A stretch of 48,838 bases of DNA from assembly GCA_049724395.1 (NCBI GenBank), contig JAUGWO010000127.1, positions 62,001 to 110,838 on the forward strand. Reading direction: 5' to 3'. Of this stretch, positions 2,481-45,300 are shown piece after piece. The position numbers and the translations under genes were made by a program. The notes beneath the pieces are model-generated. The model was given only the letters and a program-made list of their open reading frames with translations. It ran no database searches and had not been told where the DNA came from. Each line of letters starts with the position of its first letter. Position 1 is the first letter of the stretch. The stretch is from Spongospora subterranea f. sp. subterranea (taxonomy: Eukaryota).

Positions 2481-2535
2481 AAATGGGCCTTTACGATCGC
2501 TGAATGCCAATTCTCCTGGCCGGCGTAGGAGAGTA

Positions 2536-5101
2536 CAGTCCCAGTCACCTTAACTCCACACTTGTTTCAATTTGGTTTATTAGAAATTGCGCGCAAATTA
2601 AGTTTGCGCAACTGCGCAACTTGATTTGTGCGTAAGCAGGTTTTCAGCAAATTCAATAAGGAATCTGGAACTGCAATGGGTTATAAGTCCTTCAGAATTC
2701 TAACGGGAATCGATCGATGTCTTCGGTATTTTTTTACAGCAAACTCCACTTGATCGGGAGTCAATTGGTTTCCGTCCTCCCCGCAAACACGATAGGCGTC
2801 CATGTACCGGAAACACTTATTTGCAAATCTTTGAATCGTTGCTAACGAAACGCTGTTTAAAGCCAATGGGACAATTGTTTGAAGGTCTTTGAACGAATAT
2901 GTACAGTTCCTTCTGGTGAAAAATTTGCACGCCGCCCAGTACATCTCGATGAAGTTGAATTCGCAATGGAATTTGGGATAAAAGTCTATTAAAAATCCAT
3001 CATTCTCAAAAACTACTTCCTGTAACCAACAATTTTGTTCCTGGAAATCGGGTTGCTTTTGCAACAACTCCATGGCTGCTTGTCGAGATAGAGTAATATC
3101 CCACAAACCACGTTCAGTCAGAATTGTACGTAGACCCTTTGCCTTGCCCTCTGACGTGATCATGGACTGGGTTTGTCTATCCCCGTTTGCAAGAAACCAC
3201 CCATCACGTTGCGGCTTGACATTTTTGCCATCGTCCTTGATTGGTAAAACTTTCGCGTTCAGCGCATTAGGAGGAAGAGCACGATGATTCTGCGAGTTAT
3301 CAAACAGAAACAAAGCATCGCAGCCAGGATGTAAAATTTTGAAAATCAAGATGACGTTCTCGAGTTGTTTCACCAGATCAGAATTAGTCCAATAACCATC
3401 CGCATTTTTTCCGGGCTTCATGATTACAACTGATTCAGGATACACACCGGGATGTTGAACTTGCTGCGAAGGTGACAATTTTAAAGGACCATGGCATTCG
3501 CACAGGAATTCAGACACCATGATGCTGCGTCCTTCACCTTTGGGTCGCAATGGCCGATTATCTTCGCTCATCCAAATGGTTGTCTTTCCGTCATTTGAGC
3601 TGAAACACGATTCATCGTGGGTAACCAGAACCAATCTTCGATTCCCATCGCCTAAGTTTGGCGCGATTGCCCTCAGAACATCGACGTCTTTGTCCAACAC
3701 ATCAACGTATTTCGTCATTCGTTCTTCATAGTTTAACATCCGATTTAAGAATAACTCTCGATACAATATGACATCACCTCGTTCGTGGCCATCAACGTAT
3801 GTCCCCTTTTTAAAAACACCATATCTTAAGCCAAGAGCGTGAAGCCAACGCTTTGCAGTCGATTCTGAAACTAAAATAGGTGAAGGCAGTCCGACCTTGC
3901 TGTGTAGTTGATTGGCAATCCATTGTGAAAAACTGTGACACGTGACTGAATCATGGATTTGGCATTTTAACCAGATTCGGCATTCGCGAGCGATATCTTC
4001 ATCATGGATGAGAGATCTGCTTTTCACGTGACATCCTTGACGATGTTTAGGCAATTCTTTGTGAAGAAGAAAATGCTCTGCCCATTTCCGAATAGTTCGA
4101 GAATGATTGATTTCACTTCTTGTGGGAAAAAGATTAGCCGCAACAGTCCTGGATGCAGCGACCATATTGACAGACGACTGTAAAAGCGTGAAATATTGTT
4201 CAAGAGCAATGTTTCTGATAAAGTCGTATTTTGATACGCCCTCCATTTGTTTTTGAGCAGTGCTGCTCGCAGTCACCCTGGTGTAGGTTCCAATGATTTC
4301 AAGTGCAGCATCAACAGAAATGGCCATTGCAACATGATCGATGTCTGCTGCGTTCAAGGGTCGGGAATCCACAGGCGTTTCCGCTTTGAAAAAAAAATCA
4401 GTGATCTTTGAGTTCTCGACAGCAGACTTCAATTTGGCTTTTTCGCGATTTTGATTTCGCCACGTTGTCGTTCTGCTATTGCCAGAATACCCACAGGGCA
4501 GGTGCGAACCAGCGCCTTCTTTCCAGGTCAAAAACGACGGATTGACTGTCGAATATTCAACTTCATCAATTGCGTTATCACTGCAAAGAAAATATAAAGA
4601 ATCGTCTTTGTCATTATCTGAAACTACAAGTTCTTTGTCAGGGATGGTCAATGTCTTTGTTCGTTTAGATTCCCTTGCTTGCTGAAGCTGCTTATGGCGA
4701 CGATTACTGGGAGGCATGAAACAGTCAAAATGTTAAGACGCGTTGCCGAAAGACGAGAGTCCGATACACAAGGGTTCCTCGAACCGGACGCACGCATTTA
4801 TAAACTGCGTGACAATATAATCAAAATATGCGTACGCACTAAAATACTGCGTGCACGCACAATTTGTGAAGTTTGATATTTGACCATACATGTTTCAAAT
4901 TTTTCATTTTCCATACAACTTTGATGGCTCACTAGTCAGTCAATATTTGGAACTAGTAGAAAATTGTTCTGTATTGCTTTTCGTTTCGACGAGATCTGTC
5001 GAATTACAGAGCGTTTGTTGGAATTTGAGAAAGTTTGAAGTTGAAGATATCAAACTCCGTGACGCCCTCTCAATTGTGTTGAGTTAAGGTGACTGGGACT
5101 G
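2536..5101 (-). mobile_element. Complete IS630/Tc1/mariner-superfamily DNA transposon
   Basis: Perfect 21-bp TIRs CAGTCCCAGTCACCTTAACTC (2536-2556 and 5081-5101), flanked by TA at 2534-2535 and 5102-5103. It encloses an intact transposase ORF. Confidence 0.92.
2681..4717 (-). CDS. 678-aa DDE transposase (IS630/Tc1-like, long second spacer)
   Basis: Uninterrupted ORF with an HTH-like region (TIRKWAEHF, TAKRWLHALG), YVDGHER, and triad motifs THDESCF / LFDNSQNH / YPKFHCEFNFIEMYW. Confidence 0.9.
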   Translation of the reverse strand: MPPSNRRHKQLQQARESKRTKTLTIPDKELVVSDNDKDDSLYFLCSDNAIDEVEYSTVNPSFLTWKEGAGSHLPCGYSGNSRTTTWRNQNREKAKLKSAVENSKITDFFFKAETPVDSRPLNAADIDHVAMAISVDAALEIIGTYTRVTASSTAQKQMEGVSKYDFIRNIALEQYFTLLQSSVNMVAASRTVAANLFPTRSEINHSRTIRKWAEHFLLHKELPKHRQGCHVKSRSLIHDEDIARECRIWLKCQIHDSVTCHSFSQWIANQLHSKVGLPSPILVSESTAKRWLHALGLRYGVFKKGTYVDGHERGDVILYRELFLNRMLNYEERMTKYVDVLDKDVDVLRAIAPNLGDGNRRLVLVTHDESCFSSNDGKTTIWMSEDNRPLRPKGEGRSIMVSEFLCECHGPLKLSPSQQVQHPGVYPESVVIMKPGKNADGYWTNSDLVKQLENVILIFKILHPGCDALFLFDNSQNHRALPPNALNAKVLPIKDDGKNVKPQRDGWFLANGDRQTQSMITSEGKAKGLRTILTERGLWDITLSRQAAMELLQKQPDFQEQNCWLQEVVFENDGFLIDFYPKFHCEFNFIEMYWAACKFFTRRNCTYSFKDLQTIVPLALNSVSLATIQRFANKCFRYMDAYRVCGEDGNQLTPDQVEFAVKKYRRHRSIPVRILKDL

Positions 5102-5190
5102 TACAATTATTGTTTCAATTTGATTTTGTAAAAAAAAAAAAAAAAAATGCGAACGCACTTTGAATTATGGCTCGCGGTTTATTATCTGCG

Positions 5191-6233: not shown

Positions 6234-7318
6234 GCGCACTGTGATGTTGTGGCGGGGACTGCGTGGATCGCTTAATGTACCACCATCGATTTGCGACCTT
6301 GGTTTGACGCCACATCAACCAGGTATTGGCCATCTGTGCTTCAGATGACCACGAACTGACCATTGGTTGTTTGTGCAGGACCGCATGGATTACGCCGCGA
6401 TCACCACCGCCGACATGGCTGGAGTAGCAACAACCGACTGGCAACTCATGCTCGAGAAGGCCTCTGTCCATGAACAGTCCTTTCTGTAGTGGGACAGCTG
6501 GGACGTGGCAACCTGCGTGCGAAGTGTCAAACCGGTCCTGATTCGCCAGTGTACCAATTTTCTCAACGTTCGTCAACCGCTAACTCTGCAATCCGTCGCA
6601 AGAGCGGTTAATCATATCCTGCGATATGATTACGATTCCGGGTCGTTCTAAATCCAAATTGCGAGTACCGTCGGGTGATGTTACGAACGGGTGGACATCG
6701 TCCGAGTGTGCGTACTGAAAGGCGCCACGAAGCCACAATTTTTTCAACGTTCGTCAACCGCTAACTCTGCAATCCGTCGCAAGAGCGGTTGGAAACGCAG
6801 TAAGTCCCAACACCGTCGTTACCATTCAAATCTCACTCCTTTCAATCAGAAATGGCTTCGTGGCGCCTTTCAGTACGCACACTCGGACGATGTCCACCCG
6901 TTCGTAACATCACCCGACGGTACTCGCAATTTGGATTTAGAACGACCCGGAATCGTAATCATATCGCAGGATATGATTAACCGCTCTTGCGACGGATTGC
7001 AGAGTTAGCGGTTGACGAACGTTGAGAAAATTGGTACACTGGCGAATCAGGACCGGTTTGACACTTCGCACGCAGGTTGCCACGTCTTAGCTGTCCACGA
7101 GCAGAAAGGACTGTTCATGGACAGAGGCCTTCTCGAGCATGAGTTGCCAGTCGGATGTTGCTACTCCAGCCATGTCGGCGGTGGTGATCGCGGCGTAATC
7201 CATGCGGTCCTGCACAAACAACCAATGGTTAGTTCGTGGTCATCTGAAGCAAGCACAGATGGCCAATACCTTGTTGATGTGGCAAATCCACGCAGTCCGC
7301 CACAACATCACAGTGCGC
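6234..7318. repeat. Large inverted duplication (arms ~6234-6735 and ~6853-7318)
   Basis: The arms are reverse complements; the ORF track gives the same peptide MTNVEKIGTLANQ... on both strands. The spacer is ~117 bp. Confidence 0.9.
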
Positions 7319-9149: not shown

Positions 9150-11000
9150 ATCTTCTTCGTTATACCATCGAAAGCGATTAACTGTAGCGTCAAAAACGGA
9201 ATTAGATAAACACTTCAATAATTTCTTGGAAATGTCAGCACTCAATCTTCAATTACAGCATCTAAGCACGAATTGTCAACTATTACAACTGTTCACAAAG
9301 ACTCAAAACATCAGAATGTGATAATAGTGCGAATTTCGATGGCACCTGCAAAACGACGCACAGAGCATTGACTTGAATCTTGAAACCAATTTTGAATATG
9401 AAATAGCTGTAATTGAAATTAATCGACCGTTTGTCATACCCCATGCTACTACATCAATAATAACATTCATTCGAGCATTACTTACAAAAAAGCATTTTGA
9501 ATTTGAGCAATGTCACGACAAAATCGAGATCAGATAAAGTCATCAACAGAATGTACGAATTTGCAGAAATAGAAACGGAATCTTCAATTGCAGCATCCAT
9601 ACACGAATCGTAAACTACTCGAAAATTCACCAGGACATAAAACATTGAAATGTGATAATAGTACGAAATTCGAAGGCAGCAAAAATGACCCAAAGAGCAT
9701 TGACTTGACTCTTGAAACCAATCTTGAATCTGAATAGCTGTAATTGCTATCAAACGACCGTTTGACACGCACTATGCTGCTAAATCAATAATAACATTCA
9801 TTCGAGCATTACTCACGAAAAAGCAATTTAATTTGAGTGATGTAGCCTGAAAAACGAAATTAGCTAAGCCATCAACAGAATTTACGAATTTGCAGAAACA
9901 GAAACGGAATCTTCAATTGCAGCATCAATGCACGAATCGTCAACTATTTAAACTGTTCACAATGAGATAGAACATAAAAATGTGATAATTGGACGAAATT
10001 CGACTGCACCCGAAAAATGGACCCACAGAGCATTGACTTGAATCTTGAAACCAATCTTTAATCTGAATAGCTGTAATTGAAAAAAAAACGATCGTTTTTT
10101 GACATACACCATGGTGATGAATCAATAAAAAAAATCATTCGAGCATTATTTGCGAAAAAGCATGTAAATTTGAGGTATGTATTCGTGAAACCCGAAATTA
10201 GTTAAGCCATCAACAAATTATAGGAAATGCAAAACATCAAACCGAATCTTCAATTACAGCATCAAAACACGAAATGTCAACTTTTATAACTGTTCACAAT
10301 GAGGTAAATTAATGAAATGTGATGATAATTCAATAGACGGCTCCCGCAAATACGGCCCACTGAGCATCAAGTCGAAAACATGTAGCCAATATTGATTTTG
10401 GATAGCTGTAATTGAAATTTCTCGATCGTTAGAGCAAAAACATGCAGTTCATTTGGTCATAACATTCATTCGAGCATTACTTATAAAATCGAATCGTCAG
10501 TTGACTAGTGTAACGACAAAATCGAGTTCAGATAAGGTCACCAACAGAATCTGCGAATTTGCAGAAAAAGAAACGGAATCTTCAATTGCAGCAACAATAC
10601 ACGAATCGTCAACTATTCCAGCTGTTCACAATGAGATAAAGCGACATAAACATGTGATAATAGTACGAAATTCGACGGTACCCGCAAAAATGACTCGCTG
10701 AGCCTCAATAAAAAGTTTGAGGCCAATACCGAATCTGGATAACTACATTGTTAAAAGAACGACCGTTAACCGTAGAGCATGCAATGCAATCAATAACAGC
10801 ATGGATTAGAGCGGTATTTGCAAACGCATCTTCATTTGGCCTAATATGACGGCAGAACGGAATCAGCAAAATGGCCTCAATACTATATGGAAAATTGCAG
10901 AGACAGAAACGGAATCTTGGTTGTCAGCATCAATAAACGAATCTTTGTATTGAAACTGCTCACAATGGCACAAAACATGAAAAATGTGATATTGAGCGCC
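9150..11000. repeat. Diverged tandem repeat, about 6 units of ~333 bp
   Basis: The marker AAACGGAATCTTCAATTGCAGC recurs at ~9240, 9573, 9902, 10239, 10571 and 10907 (periods 329-337). Confidence 0.85.
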
Positions 11001-11889
11001 AATTGCAAAGACAAAAGCGAAGAGCGTCCACAGTCATAATCAGACATGGATTCTGTCGTTATATCAACGCTTTCAAAAAAAACCTCTGACTGTAATTTAG
11101 TATTTGTAAATCATGCTCAAACGTACAAGCAGCAGCAAATTGATAAGCGATAAACAACAGCATCGGGTCAATGGGTGGCTCTAAGCGCAAAGAAAGCCAT
11201 AGCGTTGCATGAACTGTTTGTAGTTTATTAATCTTAACTAGTTTATTAATCTTAAACCCAGTAATAGCTCGAGCGCAAACATCCTCAACAATAGAAATTC
11301 GGCAATGGCAAAGATTGAAGAAAACGTCATACTAAAAAAACATTATGCAGCATCTCTGACCTGAAACGAGGCACAGAAAACAATGAAAATGCAAAAGAAA
11401 CCGATAACAATTCTAAATTAATCATTAAATCATCGGAATTTGAAAATGATGATCCGCATCCCTCATTGAAAACTACATTCAACAGCATTAAAACAAAATA
11501 AAAACGGGGTTCGACTCGACAACCATAATCACCTAGAAACCAGCAGGGACCCCAGAGTAGACTGGACATCATTGCGAAATATTCAATGATCATAATGAGC
11601 ACCAGATTGGCGTGCGAAACTGCATCACAACGGGACATGGTTCAGGCAACTGGAAAACGTCTGGCGACGACGACCGATGGCCGAGGCCGGGACAACAGTA
11701 ACCCAACATGAGATCGGACCTGCAAACTGTCAAGGAATACAACAACCCAATAATCTTGAACATCATCAGATGGAGTTGTGGTTTTGGCTCGGTTTCGACA
11801 GCTGTATGACCATGATAAAGTTGCTGATGTTGGCGTCACTTACCGATATTTTGACGAGAAGGCACAACCGTTTGATATCAGAGATACAG

Positions 11890-12590
11890 AGGAATCGGAC
11901 GATCCAATTGATGGTGATATTGGCGACAATCGACAATTAATACAGTCCAATTGATGATGATAATGGCGATAATCATCAATTTAATACAGAAGAACCGGGT
12001 GCTCTACTTGATGATGATAACGGAGACAATCAACAATTAATAGAGCAGAATCGGGTGCTCTACTTGATGATGATAATGGCGACAATCGACAGTCAAAAGA
12101 GAAGAATCGGGCGATGCACGTGAAGATGATTGATTGATGATGATAATGGCGACAATCAAAAAATCAATAGAGAAGAATCGGGTGATGCATTTCATGATGA
12201 TAATGGCGACAATCAACCATCAAAAGAGAAGAACCGGGTTGTAATGACCTGGACGGAACGAACAATAGGCTTAAGCTAAAACTAGAGAGAAGGTTTAACT
12301 AACAGAGACTGAGGCTAAACGTGGTGCTTTACTAGAACTAATAATACGATCTGAGCCCGAAGACTCAGATCGTGGATAGGTAATATGGATAGATATTATT
12401 GACTGGTGTGGAGGATCTAACACGGGTGATCCACTTGATGAAGATAATGGCCAAAATCGACAATCAATAGAGAAGAATCGGGTGATCGACTTGATGATGA
12501 TAATGGCCAAAATCGACAATCAATAGAGAAGAATCGGGTGATCCACTTGATGATGATGATTATAACAACCGATATTCTATATAGAAGAAT
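11890..12590. repeat. ~54-bp minisatellite interrupted by a solo LTR
   Basis: The unit GATGATGATAATGGCGACAATCGACAATCAATAGAGAAGAATCGGGTGATCCACTT, with variants, repeats on both sides of 12240-12422. Confidence 0.85.
12240..12422. mobile_element. Solo LTR (183 bp)
   Basis: TG...CA ends and a perfect 5-bp TSD CGGGT (12235-12239 and 12423-12427). Removing it restores the minisatellite unit. Confidence 0.85.
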
Positions 12591-12641: not shown

Positions 12642-15600
12642 ATGTCATCGCTAGAGTCGGCATCTGATTCCGAATGCGGTACCGTCTGTATTTTAGAATG
12701 CGGTCGTTGGACTGTTTCTGACATACTTGCGCCGACGCTGCCGTGCACCCTTATTGATAGAAGTGTCGCGAATCAGAACTTCGACTGTGATCAGGTTCCG
12801 CTGCGACCAGATGGAAATTGCCGTTTTATGTTTGACGAAGCTTCCAAAAAGCCCAATTTGGTCGGTCGGTACTCCGAGTGGCAATGGCGAGTAACCAACA
12901 CCCGCTACCGTTCGCTGCCATCTGACCCCTTACCGATTAAGATCACCAACAAGGTGTGCACAGGCAACATTGTTTGCTCCAATTTGGGATGTGCATATTC
13001 GCGTCGTCCGAAAACAGAACAATCCGGACAACTTTGAACGAACGTAATATCGCAACTCAGTCACAAGTCTAAAACCTTGAACAGTTGTTTACTTTTTATA
13101 ATGTTGCAGGTGCCGCGTTTGCAGCAGCGACATGGTTCGACTCGTTTGTCCTGCAACATGCATGTGGGTGGAGGCAAAATTCTCTGATCGAGCCATTATT
13201 ATCCATTCTGACCGGCATTCTCATGCCGTGCCACATGTGTTGAAGCCTGACTTTTACTGCAAAAAGATGCTCACTGACAGGATCTGTAATAATCCCATGG
13301 CCAAAGCTGTCACGCTTGTCACCGGCACACCAATCATTGGCTCGGTCTGTGAGATCCATGAATCTTACGGTAACCTCTCAAGAGTAGCGTATTTCCGACT
13401 TCAGGTGTTGCGAGACCTTGGTGTTAGACTTCCAGGTCTCGGTTACTTGATTTATCTGAAAATGTTCCTAAATTTGAATAATCTAGGTTCTGGAGACTCA
13501 TTCATCGATCAAATCCTGGAGTTTCAACTGACTTTTGGCAAAACTGCCGTCATCTTGAGTGATTTCAACATCAATCGAATGCACTTAACTGCTGCTTCGA
13601 GTTTTATGTTGGAAAGGTACAGTTGAATATTTCTTTCATGATTGTTGCTGATTCTCAGCTTGCAACACAATGGTTAGATTCGTCGATGTAGATCCGTTGA
13701 CAGGTCGTGATGGCCAAGGCGCTGTTTCCGATGTTACGTACAGTTTTTTTGATCGAGGCTTTCTTATGACAACCGCAGTGTATTGCGGTTTGCTTGCGCG
13801 ATGGGTCCCGGTGGCTTTTTCTTGGTTGAACGGACTAACTCGCGAGCATTATCGGGCACATTTTGAAGCGATTTTCAGCTGCGCCTCAGCAAGCATTCAG
13901 TCCGCTGAAGCATCGTTGTCTGTACAGGACAAGGTGACAAGATTCAAACGTTTGTGTGGGGCAGTCATGGATTTTTCCAATGCGCAAACATTGAGCTTCA
14001 TCGATGCTTATATTTCGGTACAGTGCTGAAACTCATTGTTATGACATTGCTTACATGTCTACAGATAACGAACAGAATCTTCAACTCACATGGCATTGTT
14101 CCGATTGTTTCCGAATTGAAGGCCGACGCACAATCGCTAATGAAAGGTTGTAGAGTGCACTTTATTTGCTCAGCTCAGCGGATTGACCGCAATCATGCCA
14201 TTGTGGGGCGTGACAATGATGGCAAATTTCTGCAATTAATCATGGAAGCAGTTGAAGAACCCATGCTGCATGCCTTTCATGAAGCAATGAAAATCCTTCA
14301 TGTTGGAATCACATTGATCGTTACGATATAAGAGGTCAAAATCAACTTTTGTTATATCAGGACCGATATCCAAAAGCAAGACCGTGGTTTTCCTGGTGGT
14401 TAAAAGAGAGTGTGGCATGTCTTATTTTTGAATCGCAACGGAAATTAGATCCAGAAGTTGGCGAAAAAAAATGTAAGAGAGGATAGCAATCCCATTGAGT
14501 CGATGCACTCTATATATTATCAAATAGCTGAACGCAAAAATCCTATTGTGTTCGGTCTCTCGGCCTTGATGATTTTTGCGGCAAATAATGAACGAGAGAT
14601 GAATGACCTTCAGCTTGGTCGAACTGTTAGATATGGTACAGAGTGCAATGTTGTCACTCTCAGCGAAGATTGATCAAACTATAGGTGTTCCTGAGAGATG
14701 GAAGATATCTATAGAAAAATACGGGTTAGCACACCCCGAGCGCCGAAGAAGACAACTACATGCACCAAATGAGGGCGAGCGCCCGATACGACTAACTCCC
14801 TCTTGCATGGTTCCAATGCATCAGTGGATTGTGTCGAACTGAAAGGTACCACTCAACGACCTGAGAACAAGGAAACCCCTTCAGTAATTGGCAAGAAGAG
14901 ACCTGGGAACAAGGAAACCCATTCAGGGGTTGGCAAGACCTGGTCGCCCGAAAGGGGCAACAAACGTGGATAAAAACCCCAACACCACTTACCAGTCGTA
15001 CCGACATTCTAACAATACCTGTTACTTAACAGTTCTGTTGGAGGTTCTAGCGGTTTGTCTTCCAAACATTCCAGCCCCTTCAGGTAATGTGGTTCCTTGT
15101 TCCGGCGATACCTTCTTTATCTTCAATTCTTAGACCAACACGACAATACAAGGTCGTGTTTTGCGCGGCTTCTGCAACACGTCAATGCCCGGATGAATAA
15201 GCAAGGCGCTTCCCTGACAAAGGAGTTGACCAAAGGAAGAGAATTTCTCACTACCTGGGTTACTGAAATCGAAAAATTATACAAGCCAGGATCATTTGGA
15301 TGCCCTTTTGAAGTCCTTGCTAGGGTTTTATCTGAAATCGACAGTGATCCTATTTTTGCTCATTTCAAAATGATTGTACAGGTATAGTTTCATTGTATTG
15401 TTGAATGCATTTAACACAAATATGTTTTTCAGAAGGATGTAAGATGTACAAACGGGCATCACATAAAGTCGCGTCCGTTATTTTGGCCGATTTTGGTACA
15501 ACTGTTTTGGTGTTAACCACGGGTGTTTGAATCAAACTTTGTTGTAGGAGCTGAGACAGCAAGTATTTACTCAGTCATCATCAATGTCTCTACAGACCGC

Positions 15601-16074
15601 CGTTGCCGCATTGATTTCTGGTTTTACAGAAGAACTGCATAGAAGCTGCATTCACCCAGGTTGTGATTCGGTATGTGAACAGTCAACTGCATTTAAACAA
15701 CAGGAACATCTCATCGCCACAAATAGTGCAAGCAAGTACAGACCCTAACGATCGAGGCAATGCCAACTTCAGTATTGTTTATCACGTTGCCTATCGGAGT
15801 GCCAGATGATAATGTGCCGCTGGTTGATAGCACGACCATTTTTTGTCCGGATACATTATATGTTCTGAATGAAGAATGGCGTTTGATGGCAAGAATATCC
15901 GCTACTACTATGACAGGATCACACTTTTATGCACACATTCGCCGTGAGTTTCAAGGCATGATGCCGGGATTCTACCACTACGATGATCTACAAAATCATG
16001 GAAGAGCAGTTTTCGATCCAGCTGCTGTAAATTTAAAGCCTAATTCAATATATTTGGCCTATGTCAAGAAATAA
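12642..16074 (+). mobile_element. Spliced, partly degenerate Mutator-like (MULE) transposase gene: GCM-like DNA-binding domain + DDE core + USP-like protease
   Basis: GCM-like W..TN...KVCTGNIVCSNLGC...RP...CRVC...C...HSDRHSH. Core residues SDVT (D ~13730), MDFS (D ~13970), CRVH (~14149) and SNPIESMH (E ~14497). AT-hook-like PGRPKG. Protease motifs NNTCY (~15020) and GSHFYAH...YHYDD (~15922-15987). Confidence 0.7.
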
Positions 16075-16334: not shown

Positions 16335-16475
16335 TCGATGACCAGTCAATATATGTTCGGCTGAATCTCCCAGTCAGAATGTGACCAGCTTTTTCTCGCG
16401 CCCTAGTAATTAACTGGTCACATTGACTGGTCGTCTACGCAATTTTTGAAGTGACCAGTTAATGTGACCAGTCTT
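16335..16475. repeat. Cluster of TGACCAG motifs in both orientations (putative transposon subterminal sites)
   Basis: Six TGACCAG/CTGGTC(A) copies within ~140 bp, downstream of the MULE gene. Confidence 0.5.
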
Positions 16476-17344
16476 TTCTAGCCCCCCATATAAAACTACG
16501 CGCATTTTTCAGATTTGAGATTGAAACAAAGTACAGAGTTAAGGTGTCCGCTACTGTACTAAAAAAACATTCTCGTCAAAATCAGTCCAACACAGTTCAT
16601 CTTTAAATGGCTTGAATCTGTTCAACACTTCAAGTCGCAGTTTGACAGAATTCACCAAAAAACAACATCGACGGCAATGGTCACATTCCCGAAACCGACG
16701 CCAATCAACGGACGCCTACTGTATAAAGGGGCTTATTGGGTCCAGATCTGTCCCACGTCTACAGCTACACAACGGTAGGAGGCTTCTGCCTAAATTCAGA
16801 GCCGAACGTGATCAACAGCGACAACGCGACCAGAATAACTGCTTTACCCAGGATATGGGTTTTCACGATCTGGACCCGAAACAGGTGTTGACATTTGTTT
16901 TGCTGTGCTCAAAGCATTGGATTCCTGTAGCTTTATAACCGAACTGCCCCTGTTTCTCAGTCAGTTCTTAACCACATATTTGAGTCCAAAGCGATTGTAC
17001 GAACCGTCGACGTGTACTATGCTGAGCTTGGTCGAATTGAAATAATCCTGACATGCCCCTAACATCGCTCAATGGTCCCGCCTGATCAAGAAGGTTGAAC
17101 ACCAAAGGAATCTGAAGAGACAGCTCACACAGCACTTCACATGAGTTGATGAAACTTGTGCATAATTCTGCCATTGGTCGCATACTATAGATCCGGTAAT
17201 TTATCACCTGAACCAAACCCTATATATAGAATCGATGATCGATGTTTAACATTGAGGAATTAAAACGGAATTCATATCCCCACATGTCCAACAGGACCAT
17301 GACACTCTGTGTTCAATACCCTGTATGAACATCACGACATACAT

Positions 17345-18160
17345 TTGACGTATAGGGAAAGTTCGCACAGGTGGTAGAGCCTATATTTCATGCTCCGAAA
17401 ATTCTGACAAACGTCGAAATGACAAAGTATAGTCCCAGCAACAGAATGGTCACACTCCTCGTAGCCGCTCAACAAAATCTCGAAGTGGTCCCAAATCTTC
17501 CACGACGGCTGAACCGAAGACAGCGTTCGATGCATCCTAGCTTGACGGTCAACGCGCTCACTTTTGAGCAGCCGCTCCCGACATCGTTTGATATTTCTCC
17601 AATCGACGTCATATTTGCTTCCAACCTGATATAGCACCCCAGGTTGTGCAAAAGCTTCGTAAAGGCCGCGCGGAGCACATTTGTTAAAGTTATTTGGACA
17701 AGAACTACGGTATGCATAATGGCGTCAAAAACAGTGCGATTCAAGACGGTTATTCCAATGTGCGGGTTGCCTATGATCACTTCCATCGTGGGTCGCGGTC
17801 TCTGCAGTTTTACACTTGGTGAAAATTTGGCTATCGTAAATGAATCTTTTGCACAACCTGAGGTACTATACAGGTTGGAAGCAAATATGAAGTCGATTGG
17901 AGAAATATCAAACGATGGCGGGAGTGGCTGCTCAATAGTGAGCGCGTTGACCATCAAGCTAGGATGCATCGAACGCTGTCTTCGGTTCAGGCCGTCGTGG
18001 AAGGTACAGACGTTTGGGACCATTTTCAAGATTTTATTGAGCGGCCACGAGGAAGGTGATCATTCTGTTGCTGGGACTATATTTTCTCATTTCGACGTTC
18101 GTCAGAGTTTTCGGAGCATGAAATATAGCTCTACCACCTGTGCGACTTTCCCACATATCA
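17345..18160. mobile_element. Inverted duplication of a pogo-like transposase N-terminal fragment (arms ~17345-17660 and ~17845-18160)
   Basis: Diverged reverse-complement arms. Both encode VGSKY(D/E)VDWRNIKR(W/C)RE, which resembles a Brinker/pogo HTH. Confidence 0.55.
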
Positions 18161-18946
18161 AGCACGAATCGGAACGCAGTTCTTGGGCAGGAATCCGATA
18201 CGACGCGATTCATGACCATTGATGTCAGCATGTGTAGCCACCGCTTCTACGCCGACACCGTTTCCTGATTGAGGAATCGTATGAAAATTAAAATGTTGGT
18301 GAATTAACCGCAAAAGCTTTTGTCGACAGTGACCACATCGCCTATTGTCAAGGTTTCGAGAACCAAGGACATTTTGTTCCTTTCTGAAAAACCTCCGAAC
18401 AATACCAAAACGTAGCCGACAGAGTTCGAAACCCAGCAAAACTGGTTTTTTCACCAGAAACCTACTCCTCGAAGCAAAAAGGGGAATGTGCATTACTACA
18501 TAGGGGCTATTTCGGCAAGAATGACGGTAACACTCATCAAAAGCAGAAACGTTTGCTCGGCAATTTGCGATATGTCATAAAGAATACTCAGATTAATAAA
18601 GTTCCCACAAATCTTCGTCAGTGAAGGTGCCAAAAAGTATCCAATTTTGTTAGAACAAGGTGCTGGATCATTTAGACAGCCGGAAAGACGTTGGGGATCG
18701 GCATTCAAAAGGCTATTAAAACAACGAGATATGTTTTTACTGGCTCTATTGCTCAGCCGCCAGAAGATGAACTGGTTAAGCTCAACACCATACCCTCTCA
18801 GCGGTGTACCAGATTCTGATTAGGCCTAATTTGGATGCTGTTCCGATTAAGCCTGGGCACACTAATCAAAGTCGATCCGCACCGCAACATTCGTTCGAAT
18901 CGCGGTCTTGAACAGGAGTTCGTTCATAATAAATACTCTTATATAT

Positions 18947-21900
18947 TTACAATCGTGAAAGATAATCGTCAAATCGTACCTCGGGTAACGCAGAGAGCTT
19001 CTTCAGTAATGGCGCTACATTTCGATGATATGACGCTGGTGCAAATGATGACGGCGACTGCCATTGTAAATGAAGCGGTAAACATTGAGAACTGGGCGGG
19101 CGCTGAGTTGGCATCGTTAACCGGGTTAACGTCCACCACGTTAAATCTGGATCGATTTTCATCAATTCTGTGAACAGCTGTACAGCTTCGGTTTGGATCA
19201 CTGAAGGAAGTGAATCTGACAAATAAACACTGGTCTGTGTGGCGATATCAGGAAGGACAGAGGCGGAAGATGCAGGAAGGGATAGACAATGTCGAATCAG
19301 GCGTAAAGCGCGTTCTTGCATAGTGATCGATGAGGGATTCAACGCACTGCGGTTTAACGCGGATGAGAGTACCCGCTGCTCGGAGATCATCATCGACTTG
19401 AGGCTGAATCGAAGCAGTCAGACTGGGGGGAGCCAGAAAGTGAGTCACGAGAAGGTTGATACCTAGGCCAGAGTTCTGTGGCAACACGATGGGCGATGAA
19501 ACTAGGGCAGACTTGAACGATAACGTCAGCAACATCAAGGGCCTTACGCAGTACAGAGCGGTTGGCATTGGAAAACCCGAGCTTTAACGGATCCCATATA
19601 AGAGCAACCTAAAAAAACAGGCCATGATTGATGAGCGTAAAACAGGGTTTGATTAAAATCGATCGATAGACCATGGAGGACTGCCGAAAAAAAAAACAAG
19701 TTAACCGTGAACAACTGGTGTGGTAAGCAACAAAAACAAACACGAACAACAATAAAAACTGCGATTTAGGTGTACCTTGGGCAACAACACCTTCTCATTA
19801 TTGCGAATCGCCCAAAGACAAGAGCCCATTAGCTCTAGGGCAACATGTCGGCGATGGAGATCCGGAGTATCGATGAAATGCATAGTCCTTTCGACAATCA
19901 ACAAAATTGTTTTGAAATGAAGTGACAGCTCTGGTTCCATATCTGGTGAAGCGCTATCTTGAATGTTGTCGTCGGCAGCGTCCCCAGCATTGATTTCTTG
20001 TTCGCCCCAATCATGCGGGGGCACCATTTCTTCATCGTCAACATTTTTGAAGGAATCCTGCATTCGCCGATCAAATCGAAATGCTTCTTCAGCCTCACTT
20101 AGCCTCTTTGCAATGTTCTCACCGCTGTAGAACGCAGCGTCGCAGATCAGCGTCATTGGTTTCAACTCAGAAAGAACTGGATGCTCGGAGAGCGCGTTAA
20201 CTGCAGCAAGAAGAACGCGAAGCAAAGAAATGACCAACGCCGGATCGTCTAGTGCGTTGTCTAAACAGGAAACAACAGTCGTAATGGTATCGATTAATAA
20301 CGGAGCTAACGCGGAATCGGACGAAACGTCCAATGTCAGAAGTTTTTCCAGCATACACGATGTTTGAAGAGACGACGCCGACGATGACAACTTGAACGCA
20401 ATGACGTCGACAAGGTAATCGATATTGTCGGCGAGAAGAGCTCCCATACTGTCATGGCCTTGAGAAAGAGCTATTCGGTCAAGAGCTGCTCGAGAGGATT
20501 GCTGTGTGATGACGGATGAATCCGCCAAAGCAGCAACGCTGGGGAATAGAGCATGCATCAAAAGAAGCTGAAAGTTGGGCCCTAGACGTGTCGCGGCAGC
20601 AGCCAGACATCGTAATAAAAATGGCCTCAAAACTGAGTTGGACCACAATGTATCGTCGAGAAACGCGAGAACTAGATCGGCGGTGAAGCTGGGCGATGAT
20701 TTGATGGCGCATTCGGCAATAACAAGATGCTCTGGCTGGGAGTTGATAAGACAGAGGTTGAGGAGATCGCGACTCATTTCGTTTGATCCAGCAGCCACGA
20801 ATCCGCTTATCAGACTGAGGGCCTCTTCAGCAGAAAAGGGGAAGTTAGCCATGTTAACATGGTAAAATGGAGCGCACCTGGCATAGCAACGAGACTCAAT
20901 ATTGAATGTTTCCGATTCAGAGTTACTGAAAATTTACAAAGCATGACCCAACGCCGATACGATCAAACAAATGATCAACAAAAACCAACTACCATTGCTT
21001 TCAATACATGTGTAAGCATAGCAATGGTTTTTTGTAAAAGGAGATTTGTGATGGTGTTTAGCTTTACCATGTGGAATCGCGTGATTCTAGCGCTACCGTA
21101 GTGTTATCGTCCAATGTGACCAATTTCAACATGATCTGCATAATACGCTGTTGATGCATGAGCCAAATCTGGGCCAACTCCTCCTGACTGCATAGGCGAA
21201 AGGCGCGCGTCACTGCTCGAACATCCAAAACATGAGGACGGGCAATAGCAATGCACCCTAGACGATGCATAACAGAGTCGGCGATGTTGACCAGCGGCGA
21301 GCAAGTTCGTAAAGCATCGATTGCAGGGACAGATACGGCCGGAAGAGAATCCTCAGCACCCGATAATAGAACGTCAAACAACACTTTATGGGATATTGCC
21401 AGAGAGGGAAGCAATAATAATGAAGACGCTAACGAAATAACCGAGATTCGAACGCGAGGCGAGGGTGGAGGACCTTCGAATAGCCGTCGACGGACGACAG
21501 TTTGGACCAGGTTGCCAGCATTGTTGGTAAACTCAAGGTTTGATGCGTTATGAGGAATAATAGCAATCATCGCGACTGATAATGTTTCCAGCGCCGTAGC
21601 GATCACGCCGGAACCAGTTTTGAAATCCGCGGCGGCAATGCCGGCGATAGCCGATAGAAGCCCAGGAGCGATGGGGGTTAAGGCTACTGGGGATATACCT
21701 CGCGATATATCGCACACAGCATTAAGCGCTTGGATTCGCAACGTTTTCAATGCTTCCAACCGCGCAGATTCCAACAAAGCGCCGACAACATGCGCCAAAG
21801 GCTTTGAAAAAGAGCTGTCAGAAAGCTGAAGAAGCACGTCCGGCTGAAACAATAATCGCATTAACTGAATTGTGGTCACGCGATGAGATTCTGAGCGGAG

Positions 21901-22272
21901 ACGACGAGATGCAGCTGAAAGGGCACCTAGACAGGTTGGCCAGAACGATAATGGGACTGAGGATCCACATAAAGTTATTAATGATGATATGTAGACCAGA
22001 GCTGCATGATTGTCGGAATCGGAATCTGAGGCAAGTAAGGGGAGAGCGGGATATAGAGCCAAAGCAGCGAGACGATCGAGGATCGGACCGGATAGATTAT
22101 CGAGCTGGGCCCGTATTTCGTGAAGATATGCGGGGGATGGGGAAGCCCTGGCCGCCATGATCACATGCAGGAGAAGGGAGATGGCCGGGTCGTTATCATC
22201 CTGATTGTCTACATGATCAGAGGACGTCTGCCGACTGACAATAGGCGGTGCAGGTGATCTGATTGTCGTCAT
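18947..22272 (-). CDS. TTI1: TELO2-interacting protein 1 (HEAT-repeat TTT complex subunit), spliced
   Basis: Long Leu/Ala-rich helical exons (21064-22272, 19701-20852, 18947-19393) with motifs PGLLSAI, LLADNIDYLVD, LLPKVH and IDPDLTWWTL, typical of TTI1. Confidence 0.72.
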
Positions 22273-25200
22273 GATTTATTGTGACCGACCTGGAAGATGT
22301 GTCGAACATGGCTGCGCCTGTCACCGCTCACGGACTGTCACTTCTCACGACTCACGATTCACGACACTGCTAAACCCGGATATTACTCCAGGTTGCGACA
22401 AACGCTATATCACGACGTTCTTGTCGCTCATAGGAACTATTCGAATCGCTATCTTTGTCTCAAAAATTCATGCCTTATCTGAAATCCACTTCTATATTTA
22501 CGTTTGCCTCGTTTGGCTTCCGCGTCATCGAGATGGCGATTTGGAGAGCTCGTATGATCAACATGAACAGAATTTTATAGGCTCTTATCGCAAACCTGTT
22601 ACTCTGGCATGAAGTCACCTTGTCGTATGTCGCGTCTGCAGAAGCCGAACTGGGTAGATGATCTCTGGAGGATAACCCAACTAGGGTCCAGGAGAATCTC
22701 AGAATGGATGCGAATATCTTCATTGCCGCAATGCAATGTTGACCAATTTTCCGTTGCCTTCCTCAACAAAATATATACGAAAGTTGAAGAGCAGCTGGCA
22801 GTTTCCAACTTTTATCAAAGCAAGCGCTCCAAAGTGACATGTACAATATAGAGCGGACACTTAACCGGTGACCATCATCAGGTGTATATCGCTTGCAACC
22901 GTCTATTCTTCCAAAACTTGGTTATTGGCGTTCTTAAAACAACCAATGTATCATGTTTGTTGTTAAAGAATATATCATTATTCCTACTGACAACGTCTCC
23001 GTCTGATCCACAGTCGGCTGCAAACCATACCGTGTTTGCTGTGTGGTTCCTTGACTTAGGTTGATGTTAAAAATGGATTTGCTTGGTCTGATTTCGATCG
23101 AGGCTCAAAAGCATATCAGCAGGCTAGGAAAGGTCGGCTCCCGACAGCACAATGCCCGTATTAAAGGGTTTAACACAACTGCTGGGTACGTTCGATCTTG
23201 CCGGCGCAGGGTACGCTCTTACGCCAGCGGCGGTGTTAACGCCGTATCGATGTGTTGAATTTCACTCGAGAGAATGGGAACAACAGGTTCTTGATCCCCA
23301 ATGCTACAACTCTTACCCGACATGACCGCAGAACCCACATGAACTGTACTATGATTAGACCGGATTTTCGGCATTTCAATGAAAACGATTTCCCATTGAT
23401 TGCCAAGCGCCTAAAGTATCGCTGAAAATGCAGACAAACTAAGTTATAGCGTGCTGTATCTGACACAGCTACAAATATCAGGTTTTTAGGCGGAACTGGG
23501 GATGTGATTGAAAACAGAGGCAATGTGCTTACTCTCACAACCTATGCAAAAAGGGAGATGGTTCTTGAAGCGAGCGACAGCAGTGCAACCCTCGATTCCT
23601 CCTGGTTGACATTGCAAACGACTTCAATACCAAAGTACAATAAACGCCCGACATTGGCGCTAACTTTCTTATGTTCTTTGAATATTTGGTTTTCAAGCCA
23701 TTGGTTGTCTGGGCACAATGCGGTGAAGAGTTCAGCTTTTAAATTACTGAGCATGACGTTGAATGCTGTCAACATGTCGTCGTCGTTCAAATGGCCATAA
23801 CAGTCTTGTATGATGCCAACAGCAATGTGCTCATGCGTCGATCTATGCTTGCTAGACACATCGTTGATCGTATCTGCCAGTGTTGAGGCAGGTGTGACAT
23901 GAACGCGCTGATTTGGTTGAACTGCAGAGCAGCGGACACCTGGGCTGGGCGTTTCCTTCAACAGAGCCTTTCTTTATTATGTCGGTTGTCGAACACCGGT
24001 GGGATTTTGAGCGACCAGAAACCACTTTGTACGAAAGGCCTTACCAGCCACTACATAGTTTCATCGAACATCACGGTCCTGAGGGGCTCAACTAAAGGTG
24101 CGGATGAGTCATCGGGTGAATTAACTCGCTGCGCGGCGTGGCATTTCGTCATTCGAGACTTGTCCAATAATCACAGTCCATATATATAGAAGGACATTTC
24201 CAGCGAGTTAAAGTTGTTCACTAGAACTGTAGGAAAAATTAGCAAGATGGAGGCTAACGAGGAGCAACTTGACAGTAATAGCAGCTAGCCAGCCTTGGCT
24301 TGGAATCGCCACTCAGAATACCAGCGGGTCAGCACTGCCGAACCAAGTTCAGTACCATGGCGACAGAGTGGTAGATCTTTGCAAGGAGCTCCACGAGTGT
24401 GGCGAAATCGTTGAAGGTCTTGTCGTTGCCCGGCTCAGGTTCAAATGCATATTGAAATGGTTTATCATGGTGATGATCCCAGGCAATGACACAGCGATTT
24501 TGCAGCTCACGCTATAAAAATTCATGGCATCGTTTTGATCGAAAATGGTCGCCAAAAATCAGATCATTTTGCAACGGTTGGCCACCAACCGTACTGTCAG
24601 GCGCCAGGCCGCACCGATTATCGAATACACCCAGTTGTATTTAACATTATCACTGAAAGTATGCCAGCCCAATCACCAAACAAGTGGCCGAATTTTTCTA
24701 TCTCTTTGCAAAGAATCCGCGATTCACAATACCAGGAAATTTCGCGAGGGCTGCTAAAGATCGGCTGTTTCGTGCCTTGATTCATCATCGTTTCGTGGCA
24801 GCAGTTCGCAATCGATGTCAGTTTTTTCAAATCCAACATCGGTCGGGTGATCAAGATCAGGCAACCGCCCGAAATGTGTTCGACCTTAACTGCATTGACA
24901 ACACATGCCATGCAGAGGTATCGATACAGCAAAAAAAAGCCGAACATCGGCTGTGTGAGATTCCACTGCATTGCCAAGATGTTTGTGGATGGGGGTTGGG
25001 CCTCAAGCGTGGCAATGCGGATGGTTGGTTCACCCTGAGACATCGCTGAACAACTTGATTTAGCTCAGTCGGTGAGACGACGGAACGTGGATATCAACTG
25101 AGATGATTTCTCGTTAATATTTATCAATTTAAAAAAATTCTCAGGAGCAAGCCAGTTCCACTTCACAGATGAGCGGATTGCGGTCTGTACACCTGGTTTT

Positions 25201-29944: not shown

Positions 29945-32417
<2,473 letters not shown>

Positions 32418-41224: not shown

Positions 41225-42153
41225 TGGCGATGCCATCCGATGCCATCATTGCACGACCCGCATCGTCGTCATCTACTCCAGCACTCAATATAGAGATGCA
41301 CGAATCGATCCTTCGGACGCATCAACGTAGTCTGGAGTTTCGCCCAAAAATACATCCAAGGCGTATGCATGTCGGCATGCGGAATTTCAAGCATGGTCCA
41401 CCGACAAAGGTTTTACCGATGGCCACACGGTGACCGGAGACAAATTGCACTTATTTCTCGATGAGCAGGTCATTGACCGACATTTTAGAAAGAGAGAAGC
41501 AACATCGAACGAATCGATTGGCAAAGTCGGGAAGTCCACCGTGTGCGGATACGCGGCTGCAATAGTTGATCTCTGGCGTCAACAAACATCTATGAAGATG
41601 AATTCAAATCCAAATCCCCGTGATTCGAATGTTAAACGATTGCGAAGAATGCAGATTACGGGACGCAGCAGCACCGCCGCAATAACTTTATCGATCGCGA
41701 TATTGTACAGAATCTTTGGTACTAACGATCGCATTAACTGTACCAAAAATTCCTTTAGCGATCCTGACTTCCTAATTTTTTTGATCTAAATAAACAGCGC
41801 TTAGGTTCCTGCGTCAACCAACGCTTGCGGAATCTGCATTTTAGATCAAAAAAGATTAGGAAGTCAGGATCGCTAAATGAATTTTGGTACAGTTAATGCG
41901 ATCGTTAGTACCAAAGATTCTGTACAGATATAGGAAGCCTTATTGATGGATACACGACTATCGACCAGATTGTCAACATCGCAAAACATATTTGGGGTAA
42001 AAGCAATGACCACGGGCAACATTTTCGAAACCTATGTGCCTTTTTCATGTCTCACTATGCACTTCTTCGAGATGAAACTCTTCGAAGTTCAAAATTTGCG
42101 GATTTGCGCTCAGTACAGTTAGGGAAGGAAGGGTTCTCTGTTTGCAATGCAAA
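41225..42153 (+). pseudogene. Crypton-type tyrosine recombinase (NDC10-like) N-terminal remnant
   Basis: Across frameshifts it reads RPK.TSKAY...VTGDKLHLFL...YAAAIVDLWRQQ...NPNPR...FIDRDIGSLIDGYTT...SHYALLRDE. It is split by a MITE and truncated by the piggyBac-like element. Confidence 0.8.
41704..41926. mobile_element. MITE, 223 bp, ~85-bp TIRs, 5-bp TSD
   Basis: TGTACAGAATCTTTGGTACTAACG... with its reverse complement at the other end. TSD GATAT at 41699-41703 and 41927-41931. Excision restores the Crypton frame D-R-D-I-G-S. Confidence 0.92.
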
Positions 42154-42368
42154 CCCTGATCGAGCGCCGGGATTATGAAAAAAATCGATACCGCCGGGGT
42201 TCAAAAAACCTGATTTTTCAAGTTTAAAAGCCAATAATCTGTTTATGATTGATTTTTATAAAAAATTGTACGCATATTGATAATCGGATTTTCTAGCCAG
42301 GGCTGATTCACCGTGGTCCAGATCGTTAGGGTACCTTCATTTGCTCATTTAGACTTCTGCAGTTTTTG

Positions 42369-45300
42369 ATGGCTGACCTACAAGCCTTTTTCGAAGACGA
42401 TTATGCCGGCGACGAACTTGCCGAATTGATGTGCAGATCTGACAATGGGTTTGAGGACGGATGCTGTCGCCAACTGGTACGGACCACGAGCTCTTGTTGA
42501 CTGCCAAAACCGAGATTTTTGCGGTTTTTAGCAACGCCAGAAGCTTGATGAATAGTCAACAAATTACGCTGAGCGAATGCGTAATTTTTTTTTCGATGGA
42601 ATTGATCACGAATTAAGTGATGCACTGCGTGAGGGGATCCCCGTAGGGCAATCCGTTTCCAGCCAGGACCTGGTAGCGTTCATCAAAGTTTTAGTCTATC
42701 TCTCGATATATGGTGTCACACCCTCCGTGTTTTTCGATCCTCAACATGCTTTCCTTTATCCAAATGCTGAGAACTGCAACAGTGTTTCATTTACCACCAT
42801 AATGAACGCTTTCAAGCGCAAAAACCATTCGGAATCGACCTTAGCAACGTGGGATCGTCCGTTTTCATCGGATACTTTGATAAGACGGACCGAGGTTGCG
42901 TTTTCGAGGACAGCATCCGAACTCGCATTCGTTCCTGCAACCACAATTTTGTCAATTGATGACGATCAGTATCGGTTGACATCCGCGCTATCTGAACAAA
43001 TGGGATTTACAAGAGTTGATAATGCGAAGAAAGCGTTTGGAATAGTCTCAACTAACACTGTATCTTTGACAACTGGGGCTGCTTCTAGGGATGCGCCTGT
43101 TAGAAAAAAGTAAAAGCTTTGCAGATGTGGTTCGTATGCTGCTCATGCATATTCACTCAGTACAACTGCCTGAACAAGTTAAGGGCACAAACTTGATTTG
43201 TTTGGACCGAGGATACAATGGCCCGAGTTTGATTGAATATCTGTTGAAGTGTGGGTTCCAGCTTCTAGGAACTCATAAAAGAATGAGATCGTTTCCTTTT
43301 GTTTTCGGTGACGTTCAAAGCAAAATAGGATCCAGAAGGTAGTCAGTGTGTTTCAAGTTTGTTTTCTAACTCATAGTGTTGACCAGAATGGTGCCCGAAC
43401 TTGGCTGTAAATCATTGTATCTGGCCAAGAAGCGGTATGGGGACAGGGATTTGTATGCCATCGCTTACCGAAGTGGCAGAGGACATGTGGCAACTCTAAT
43501 TGCCAGCAATCCTCGAGCGGCATCATGGATTTACGTTCCCAAAAAACCGTCATCGGTCACCATGTCAGTTCCAGGGCATGAACTGACTCAGCAAACTATC
43601 GATCGCAATGTTGAGGCCCTAACTGATGCTCAAGGTGGATTTGACTGGCACATTATGCGAGCAGGTTGCTGTTTGGTGACGTTAACATTAGCAAGTGCTG
43701 CTGTTCGGGCGTTTACAACATTTCTAGACCCGGGGCAAATGGCTCGCTTCGTCGATCGCAGATTCTAACATCTGATGCGCCTGTGGCAACGGGAAATTGT
43801 CCTGACCTGTCTGCAGAGCAATTCAATCAATTGACAATTCCACAGTTGAAAGAACTTGCTAGCAACTTACAGCTGCAGTGCAATGGGACAAAACAATCGG
43901 TGATAGTTCGAATCCGTGGTGCCATCCCTTCTATGCGAATATTTTCTGTTATGATGAAGAAGTGGTTCATGAAGCCATTGCGAAGTCATCCCTTTAAGTA
44001 GGAAGTGCAAACGAGAGCAATATTGTGAATGCATTGCCTTCTTGGATCGAGATCCATTGCCCTGATCTGTTGATAGTGAACGCAGAAATTGTTCATAGAG
44101 TACTCCTCCACAGTTTAACTGTTCCAACAATGGCGACATCTGTCGATGGAATTTGCGTTATGCAGTCAAGTACAGCGGCAGAAGATGAGGAACTGTTTGT
44201 TTGCATTCTGGAATTGAAAACGGCCACTACGATCACCACAATCACAATGGCAAAAGAGCGGCTAGAACGCGCTTGCAACATCTCGCAAGAGGTCGCACAG
44301 CGGTTTTTCAGAATCGACGCTTGTTCGGACCTGTTTTCTCTGTTGGTTTGGACGCCTGATTATCGCGGACAGGGTGCTTCATCATGCATCAACCACTACG
44401 TGTTCTCGAGTACTCTTTGTTGTTGCTAGTGATCATGCAATCATTTACGCGGCCTTGATCAAGTTTAATTATCTAGATTTGATTCAATATTCCTGTATCA
44501 TAACGATGATTACTTCCAGGGTCGAGCCAATGCTGGAACCTGAGTTCCTGATCGCCGCTCCTCCCGAAGCGCTACATCACGCTGTCGATAGTTCTACTGT
44601 TCATTTGTGGAGGTCTATGGCTGAGGCAATACGTTTACGACGCTCGGCATCCCACAGCTTGCCTCCTTGCCACGAAATTGTGCCATACGTGGTTTCAATG
44701 TGGAACCACACCAAAGGAGGGCAAGATGTCGTTTCAAGGCAATTAAAGAATGTTAAAGTGGATTTCCGCTCCCTGACTCCTCGGGCCTACATTTACATTA
44801 GATTTATTATGTCGTCGATCATCAACGCTCATCATCTTCACCGACTGTCACAGAATGAGCACAAACTTGACAGCTTTGACAGCTACCAAAAGTGGAAAGG
44901 TTACCTCAACCGCGAGCAATCATTCCTACAGTTTCTGGTGAGAATGGTTAAAGAATGGATTTCCTTCTCCCAGGATGTCAGATCGCAGCTCCAATGACAT
45001 TATTGGCAGCGGTGGATTGTCATTGTCTCAGCTATCAAGACAGGAACAGCGTGCTCAAGGTGATCCAGTCCGAAGTGTTCCAAAATATCGGAAGGAAGAG
45101 TTTTACAACAGACCAGAAAATTCAGTGGTCCGACTGACGGTATCAGCAGAATGGCCTTACGACCGATCGTCACGTTCCAGCAGACGTTGCCTTTTGTGCG
45201 ATGGAAGAACAACATCATATTGCACAACGTGTGATGTGAATATATGTTCAACGGCGCATCACCGTCATCGCAAATCTTGCTGGGAGAAATTTAATTTAGT

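Follow-up and report, generated by a model that had tools for sequence, protein, structure and literature searches.

The locus and its gene model

The window analysed here is a stretch of 48,838 nucleotides on contig JAUGWO010000127.1 of the plasmodiophorid Spongospora subterranea f. sp. subterranea. Its plus strand carries an 11-exon gene whose product is predicted to join a GCM DNA-binding domain, a Mutator-type DDE transposase core and a cysteine protease (Table 1). In a six-frame reading the gene motifs lie in short frames split by GT..AG introns of 47-66 nt, and the open, fully spliced form encodes a protein of 963 amino acids. A preliminary description, made from the letters alone, had placed a Mutator-like transposase with a GCM-like zinc domain and a C19-type protease module at this position; every motif that it named was found, and its limits coincide exactly with the start and stop codons. 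Placing intron 1 at 13067-13109, with a stop codon, was ruled out, as the reads give 13044-13109 plus a frameshift.

The sole close protein, 97% identical, bears the UniRef name Spongospora subterranea, and its cluster includes P0002, a public 813-aa protein of this family that reads as a single open reading frame from ATG through GCM and DDE to the Cys box of the protease. Residue numbers for GCM and DDE positions below follow P0002.

Table 1 Features of the candidate element and its gene, in window coordinates
Feature	Position	Strand	Remarks
56-bp tandem repeats, likely left arm of the element	11884..12584	.	upstream of the ATG; very deep in run X1
Putative MuDRF-type transposase-protease gene	12642..16074	+	11 exons; start ATG 12642, stop 16074
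Exons 1-6	12642-13043, 13110-13435, 13487-13616, 13678-14017, 14065-14301, 14361-14635	+	
Exons 7-11	14685-15083, 15134-15381, 15433-15495, 15548-15670, 15727-16074	+	
GCM DNA-binding domain	12810..13233 (approximate)	+	eight ligands in two Zn sites; interrupted by intron 1
Mutator DDE core	13678..14635	+	D 13730, D 13970, CxxH 14149-14160, E 14497
Family motif N-D-G-R-x-P-D-T	14685..14800	+	closes the transposase part; frameshift 14772 in this copy
AT-hook-like RPGRPK in linker	14936..14953	+	not family-wide
Predicted USP-fold cysteine protease	14990..16071	+	Cys 15020, finger Zn 15445/15457/15647/15662, His 15922, Asp 15982
Intron 9	15496-15547	+	52 nt, GT..AG; retained in X11 record 10 and P0002
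Four frameshifts of this copy	13011 (+1), 14464 (+4), 14772 (-1), 14934 (-5)	+	absent from the majority form in the runs
Likely right end	16378..16487	.	subterminal palindromic repeats, closing C6 run at 16482-16487

A GCM domain and a Mutator DDE core

The N-terminal Cys/His pattern corresponds to a GCM domain. Its zinc-type ligands C106, C112, C117, C135, C138, C147, H170 and H172 are each nearly invariant across 106 aligned sequences, the family profile matches mouse GCM1 (E 1.4e-20), and the GCM part of a structural model of the relative P0003 aligns with 1odh (Z 12.4, rmsd 3.7, 133 aligned); P0002 by itself gave no Pfam GCM match. The core residues D304, D384, C428xxH431 and E523 are likewise conserved (D 97/97, D 100/100, H 98/98 and E 102/102), and Atlas features together with structure place the core in MULE/Transposase_mut clusters. 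The best transposase match of the P0003 core is ISCth4 (Z 10.4, rmsd 5.3, 235 aligned), and it also matches the P element (Z 9.8) and Hermes (Z 9.6) transposases. Both domains thus bear out the preliminary description, and the core does align with MULE-type DDE domains. The AT-hook-like GRP that it reported is present in the linker of this copy. It is no general trait of the family: only 14 of 73 linkers have a GRP-like motif.

A predicted USP-fold protease

Behind the linker, NNTCY holds the Cys, GSHF the His and YHYDD the Asp of a protease triad, in the Cys-His-Asp/Asn order of ubiquitin-specific proteases (USPs). Among 72 near-complete family domains the triad is almost invariant (Cys 68/68, His 71/71, Asp/Asn 70/71) and falls on the window's alignment columns in 66 of the 72; the four finger zinc ligands are kept in 67, 67, 70 and 67 of them. 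Against a profile from which it had been left out, the spliced protease reading reaches 132.6 bits, and none of 200 shuffled versions exceeds 6.7; the test is only partly independent because the seed alignment had been started from the window sequence. The His-box exons are open, with a profile match spanning positions 4-284 of 304, and Atlas independently ties the His-box exon to UCH clusters (0.89-0.94).

A family profile of 106 rows finds USP46 at E 1.4e-11, with USP-family chains in the next rows down to E 1e-4. A second profile of 66 rows, from which P0095 was left out because it carries a second, canonical UCH, repeats the matches (USP46, E 5.1e-11); USP12, USP47 and USP18 are also matched. 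Evidence for the fold comes from a model of P0003, the closest full-length relative (36% identical; 28%, or 75/270, over the protease), and not of the window protein. Folded with the family alignment, this model reached pLDDT 85.8. Its residues 618-927 match USPs at Z 16-22, many at Z 20-22, including USP30 (Z 21.6, rmsd 4.0, 273 aligned) and USP12 (Z 22.3, rmsd 3.5, 276 aligned), and Foldseek relates its protease to USPs at E 1e-9 to 1e-12, with the SUMO protease USPL1 first. Viral structural matches comprise giant-virus USPs and, more weakly, coronavirus PLpro. A thumb-palm-fingers USP fold is therefore predicted by modelling, and the USP/C19-type module postulated earlier agrees with this model, with the intact triad and with the USP matches (USP46 at E 1e-11 by profile, USPs at Z 21-22 by model); a domain lacking any USP or papain fold is not what the model returned.

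Pfam does not register the domain. No family protease domain reached the Pfam UCH cut-off (best E 0.0038-0.03, 14.5-17.3 bits against 23.9); the sole pass, in P0095 from Pigoraptor, lies on a separate second domain, its family protease and canonical UCH occupying 724-1021 and 1106-1203. Pfam found nothing at cut-off in 13 single-exon pieces of the gene or in P0002, and no match to a USPL1-type family in the proteins scanned. By single sequence, the PDB gave no matches for P0002 and chance matches only for the His-box exon. Identity as an Ulp1 (C48) protease was rejected: the order here is Cys...His...Asp and the predicted fold matches USPs. The C48 triad order is His-Asp-Cys.

In the Cys box (15011-15028), the residue five positions before the catalytic Cys is Trp in 46 of 68 domains and His in 7, including the window. 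The same position is Asn in USPs and Trp in coronavirus PLpro; the Trp or His may form the oxyanion hole.

Transcription and retention of intron 9

Six of the 24 listed sequencing runs were compared with the window, X1 and X2 being DNA runs. Among the joints listed, nine of the ten introns (1-8 and 10) were seen as joints in RNA-type contigs, and intron joints occurred in neither DNA run. The spliced model that had been proposed as a check could thus be built with 11 exons. The proposed single transcription unit is also borne out, as P0002 is one open reading frame from GCM to Cys box and RNA contig X11 record 10 (1136 nt, 14361 to 15644) begins with the catalytic-Glu exon, crosses the Cys box and ends within exon 10; the protease exons do not form a separate transcript.

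Intron 9 is often retained. Retention introduces a stop ahead of the His box in X11 record 10 and P0002, and of the RNA paths displayed just one reaches the His-box exons without a break; it includes this intron and hence the stop. We infer that intron 9 is also spliced, from its typical size and ends and from the restoration of the frame on its removal, no joint for it being among those listed. The start of X3 record 24 falls exactly on the intron-9 acceptor (15547). A remainder of the same 123 nt is found in X12 record 16 and in X4 record 22 and fits a start at that acceptor; contig starts of this kind are expected where spliced and unspliced paths merge. Retention is predicted to give a protease-dead isoform, a transposase with half a protease, and splicing would give the 963-aa enzyme with a complete triad.

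Contigs from a multi-copy family may be mosaics of copies. At the third catalytic site, some transcribed copies read YDD and others FND. Both forms are canonical in USPs, and the replacement of YDD by FND suggests variation that stays within catalytic limits.

State and limits of the element

The copy in the window reads as broken by its frameshifts. The open form was found at all four sites in four runs, and further runs are open at the three sites that they cover. Run X1 covers it at a depth of 799-949 and run X2 at 318-386, and unique DNA has 60.6 and 34.4 in the two runs. Relative to the neighbouring single-copy contig the open form is 13-16 and 9-11 times as deep, contig depth not being true copy number. 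With that same limit, these values hint at roughly 10-15 near-identical copies. Right flanks differ among X1, X3 and X4. Both DNA runs match the neighbouring unique DNA over about 4 kb without substitutions, and X1 and X2 therefore hold the window's organism.

The four frameshifts probably represent real decay rather than assembly errors. In favour of decay, residual depth near the single-copy level and without the majority form is present at 14934 (X1 59.7, X2 39.8) and at 14772 (X2 27.5), and the window copy also differs by substitutions. In favour of assembly error, the unique flank differs from both DNA runs by indels without substitutions, and at 13011 no residual single-copy depth was seen. 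Bases 11400-11576 are without cover in four runs, which carries no evidential weight.

The right end of the element likely lies at the C6 run, because other copies depart from the window sequence at 16493-16495, just past it. No left terminal inverted repeat corresponding to this end was found in the window (the best local score, 34, lay inside the range of 29-39 given by 30 shuffled sequences). Nor was a target site duplication found, the 9 bases after the C6 end recurring nowhere upstream exactly and the window containing no recognisable left end, and a candidate empty-site flank from X2 is absent from the window. Further upstream, 9244-10950 holds about five tandem copies of an AT-rich unit of 331-337 bp, 75% alike.

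The protease across the family

A search of 1.84 billion representatives yielded 935 relatives at E 0.001 or better, and the analysis was made on the best 150. Twenty relatives were looked up, and those named come from Puccinia, Melampsora, Tilletia, Mycena, Coniophora, Obelidium and Pigoraptor. The rust proteins P0012 (E 8.8e-64), P0014 and P0018, from Puccinia graminis, P. striiformis and Melampsora, match at E 9e-64 to 7e-56, and the USP-fold domain is found in rust proteins too. Word-seeded protein searches yielded nothing beyond the protein of the species itself or two seed members, and scans of metagenome and viral contigs gave no match.

All 76 relatives with at least 150 residues behind the GRxPD motif carry the protease (best reversed-sequence control, E 0.35), in a sample that leans to carriers because the query included half of the protease. 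A profile iterated from the window protease recovers it in 97 of the 149 relatives (E below 1e-4), and 48 of the 52 missed are at most 684 residues long. In 69 proteins, the tree of the core and that of the protease have 42 of 66 splits in common, and of the 31 core splits with good support 26 are shared (Mantel r 0.85). This agreement fits one old fusion with little swapping, as far as trees that give no root or donor can tell. The protease is not a local capture, since all long-enough relatives carry it and its tree tracks that of the transposase; it is a standard part of the GCM-Mutator family and not cargo peculiar to this element. Many fungal members additionally carry PHD fingers behind the protease.

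Relation to known transposons and proteases

MuDRF, the GCM-bearing branch of MuDR/Mutator with GCM and DDE and a 9-bp target site duplication, was described in 2011 (Cantu et al., PMC3164196, in its available part). The GCM domain, the Mutator DDE core with CxxH and the homology to rust proteins indicate that the element belongs with MuDRF. It resembles the published elements in having one protein with GCM and DDE and relatives from their defining taxa. It differs in that the protease, family-wide here, is not named in the available part of that description, whose hosts are basidiomycetes and Naegleria, whereas the present host is a plasmodiophorid with relatives also in a chytrid and in Pigoraptor. 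PMC3164196 was the only relevant paper in a literature search on the name MuDRF. No paper describing a USP domain in MuDRF was found in a search that lay outside subscription papers and Repbase, and neither GCM nor C19 is mentioned in a way that bears on the MuDRF protease in PMC6446971 (text and three supplements), PMC6431247 or PMC5751038.

Proteases of the ubiquitin and SUMO systems are a recurrent companion of transposases. The usual protease of Mutator elements is Ulp1 (C48), and both Ulp1 and OTU cargo are listed in the accessible portion of PMC2836005. As in Ulp1- or OTU-bearing Mutator, Ginger and Helitron elements (PMC2836005 and PMC1702500, as excerpted), a cysteine protease of this kind lies C-terminally, sometimes with a PHD finger; unlike theirs, the one here would have a USP fold with thumb, palm and zinc fingers. 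By its description in PMC2836005, as far as that text extends, Trichomonas vaginalis XP_001314237 (transposase_11 plus Peptidase C19) is also a DDE transposase-C19 fusion and is a direct printed precedent for the pairing, unlike the present protein in that it has a pfam01609 transposase, lacks GCM and is the single protein named. Helitron-borne VTD domains, which cleave ubiquitin in vitro (PMC9741609, from the text available), are likewise transposon-encoded ubiquitin-system proteases, of another fold and another transposon class; activity is shown for VTD only and is predicted here. GCM folds have been linked to MULE transposases, and a transposon origin of GCM has already been proposed (PMC1702500, partial text). 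Both the theme of a transposase with a ubiquitin-system protease and the fusion of GCM with Mutator have been published before, which makes the present gene less surprising.

The protease resembles human USPL1 and USP12, USP46, USP30, USP2 and USP7 in its modelled fold, the Cys-His-Asp/Asn order and the finger zinc, and differs from USPL1 and canonical USPs in having only 9-17% identity to them in structural alignments. The family Cys box S-Y-x-W/H-x-x-N-S/T-C and zinc site C-x3-H...C-x4-C, together with the lack of a Gln box or KRF loop, also set it apart from USPs.

Possible functions of the protease

The architecture, the splicing of nine of the ten introns and the conservation of triad and zinc finger across the family are virtually beyond doubt. 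For the whole, our best explanation is that the gene, frameshifted in this copy, encodes the GCM-DDE-protease protein of a transcribed MuDRF transposon whose protease would remove ubiquitin at the element's site of action, a reading that we regard as evenly poised between right and wrong. GCM would bind the element ends, with GCM and linker contacting DNA, the DDE core would cut and paste the element, and the tethered protease would remove a ubiquitin-family tag in cis. It could thereby save the transposase from degradation directed by ubiquitin, or strip ubiquitin off chromatin and repair proteins where the DNA is broken; chromatin is suggested as a target by the PHD fingers of many relatives. 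As the substrate, ubiquitin is our tentative first choice, SUMO is possible and anything else rather unlikely, as judged from sequence and model. Ubiquitin-directed USPs are marked by blocking loops, by a Gln and a His residue and by a Tyr that follows the catalytic His (PMC8983731, in the part available). Against ubiquitin, neither the Gln box nor the KRF blocking loop occurs in any of 71 family domains, the ubiquitin-contact His is present in 11 of 71, the residue after the catalytic His is Tyr in 27 of 71 but Phe in the window, and the first Foldseek rank is a SUMO protease. The enzyme likely works like a USP, on the modelled fold, and is not filed as a canonical ubiquitin-specific USP because the ubiquitin-tail contacts are mostly missing.

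The same architecture could instead carry a USPL1-like SUMO isopeptidase that would free the element or its transposase from SUMO-dependent repression, so that the USP fold of MuDRF would do the job ascribed to Ulp1 (C48) in other Mutator elements. We consider this conceivable though doubtful. USPL1 fills Foldseek rows 1-4 (E 5.7e-12, against 4.8e-10 for the next entry), although its small size may inflate that rank, and VIA-align only ties it (Z 21.5-21.6) with ubiquitin USPs (21.6-22.3). By sequence USPL1 (E 7e-7) falls below USP46/12 and is absent from the best 60 of 64 second-profile matches. Among the points for SUMO, the residue after the catalytic His is Phe in 39 of 71 domains including the window, and Tyr, Phe or Trp stands at the ubiquitin-contact His site in 36 of 71 (Tyr alone in 19 of 71; Ala in the window); USPL1's own SUMO contacts are Arg324, Phe335, Asn398, His421 and His493. 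Stripped-down USP folds can nevertheless cleave ubiquitin, as coronavirus PLpro does. As in USPL1, the Gln is missing and the blocking-loop motifs are absent or short (PMC8983731, same portion), and Ulp1 is the usual Mutator protease (PMC2836005, as above). That the MuDRF protease is, in full, an ancient, family-wide and so far unrecognised USPL1-like SUMO isopeptidase switched by the splicing of one intron seems unlikely to us; if it were true, animal GCM factors and USPL1 could both have come from this one transposon family.

Self-processing, in which the protease cuts the polyprotein in its disordered linker and so releases or activates the transposase, is improbable. The linker is of low confidence in the P0003 model (residues 583-620), the same fold processes viral polyproteins (PLpro matches, Z 10-12.5) and such a role was suggested for OTU-bearing MULEs (PMC1702500, partial text). 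Yet the fingers subdomain and its zinc site, which grip ubiquitin-like folds, are kept at the counts given above, the linker lacks a conspicuous conserved cleavage motif and an isoform without the His box is transcribed. Still less credible is a passenger or inactive scaffold, or His-box exons that are never translated with the transposase in this species: the broken window copy and intron 9, kept in X11 and P0002 and with no joint among those listed, would fit, but the triad is near-invariant in very divergent relatives, the His-box exons have an open frame that matches the profile, and the X3, X12 and X4 records named above fit a merging of spliced and unspliced paths.

Many DNA transposons carry Ulp1, OTU or VTD proteases. 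The USP-fold protease of the preferred reading would be a fourth protease fold, fixed in a whole Mutator branch that spans basidiomycetes, a chytrid, a plasmodiophorid and a holozoan; Pfam misses this protease. It would add a large family of predicted USP-fold enzymes with unusual substrate-binding surfaces, and in this transcribed, apparently multi-copy element the predicted protease-dead splice form could serve as a natural control for the role of the protease.

Neighbouring features of the window

At 2533-5104, 29-bp inverted ends (97% complementary) surround an open minus-strand frame of 683 amino acids with a weak DDE_3 match (E 0.15), likely an intact IS630/Tc1-type transposon; an end related to this element begins at 16529. 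Two long fold-back inverted repeats lie at 6234-7318 and 17351-18157, one arm pair measuring 399 nt at 98%, and the latter lies over a region of unique depth. At about 18420-18486 the bin mean depth in X1 is 20947, against 60.6 for unique DNA; the segment is very deep in X2 too and has many flanks, and is likely a small high-copy repeat. Frames in 41331-45454, which had no Pfam support at cut-off, resemble part of a Crypton-type recombinase and a piggyBac-like transposase whose tail is rich in Cys. Host genes in the window include a TTI1 homologue on the minus strand (19701-22275) and a helicase C-terminal domain on the plus strand (31669-32130).
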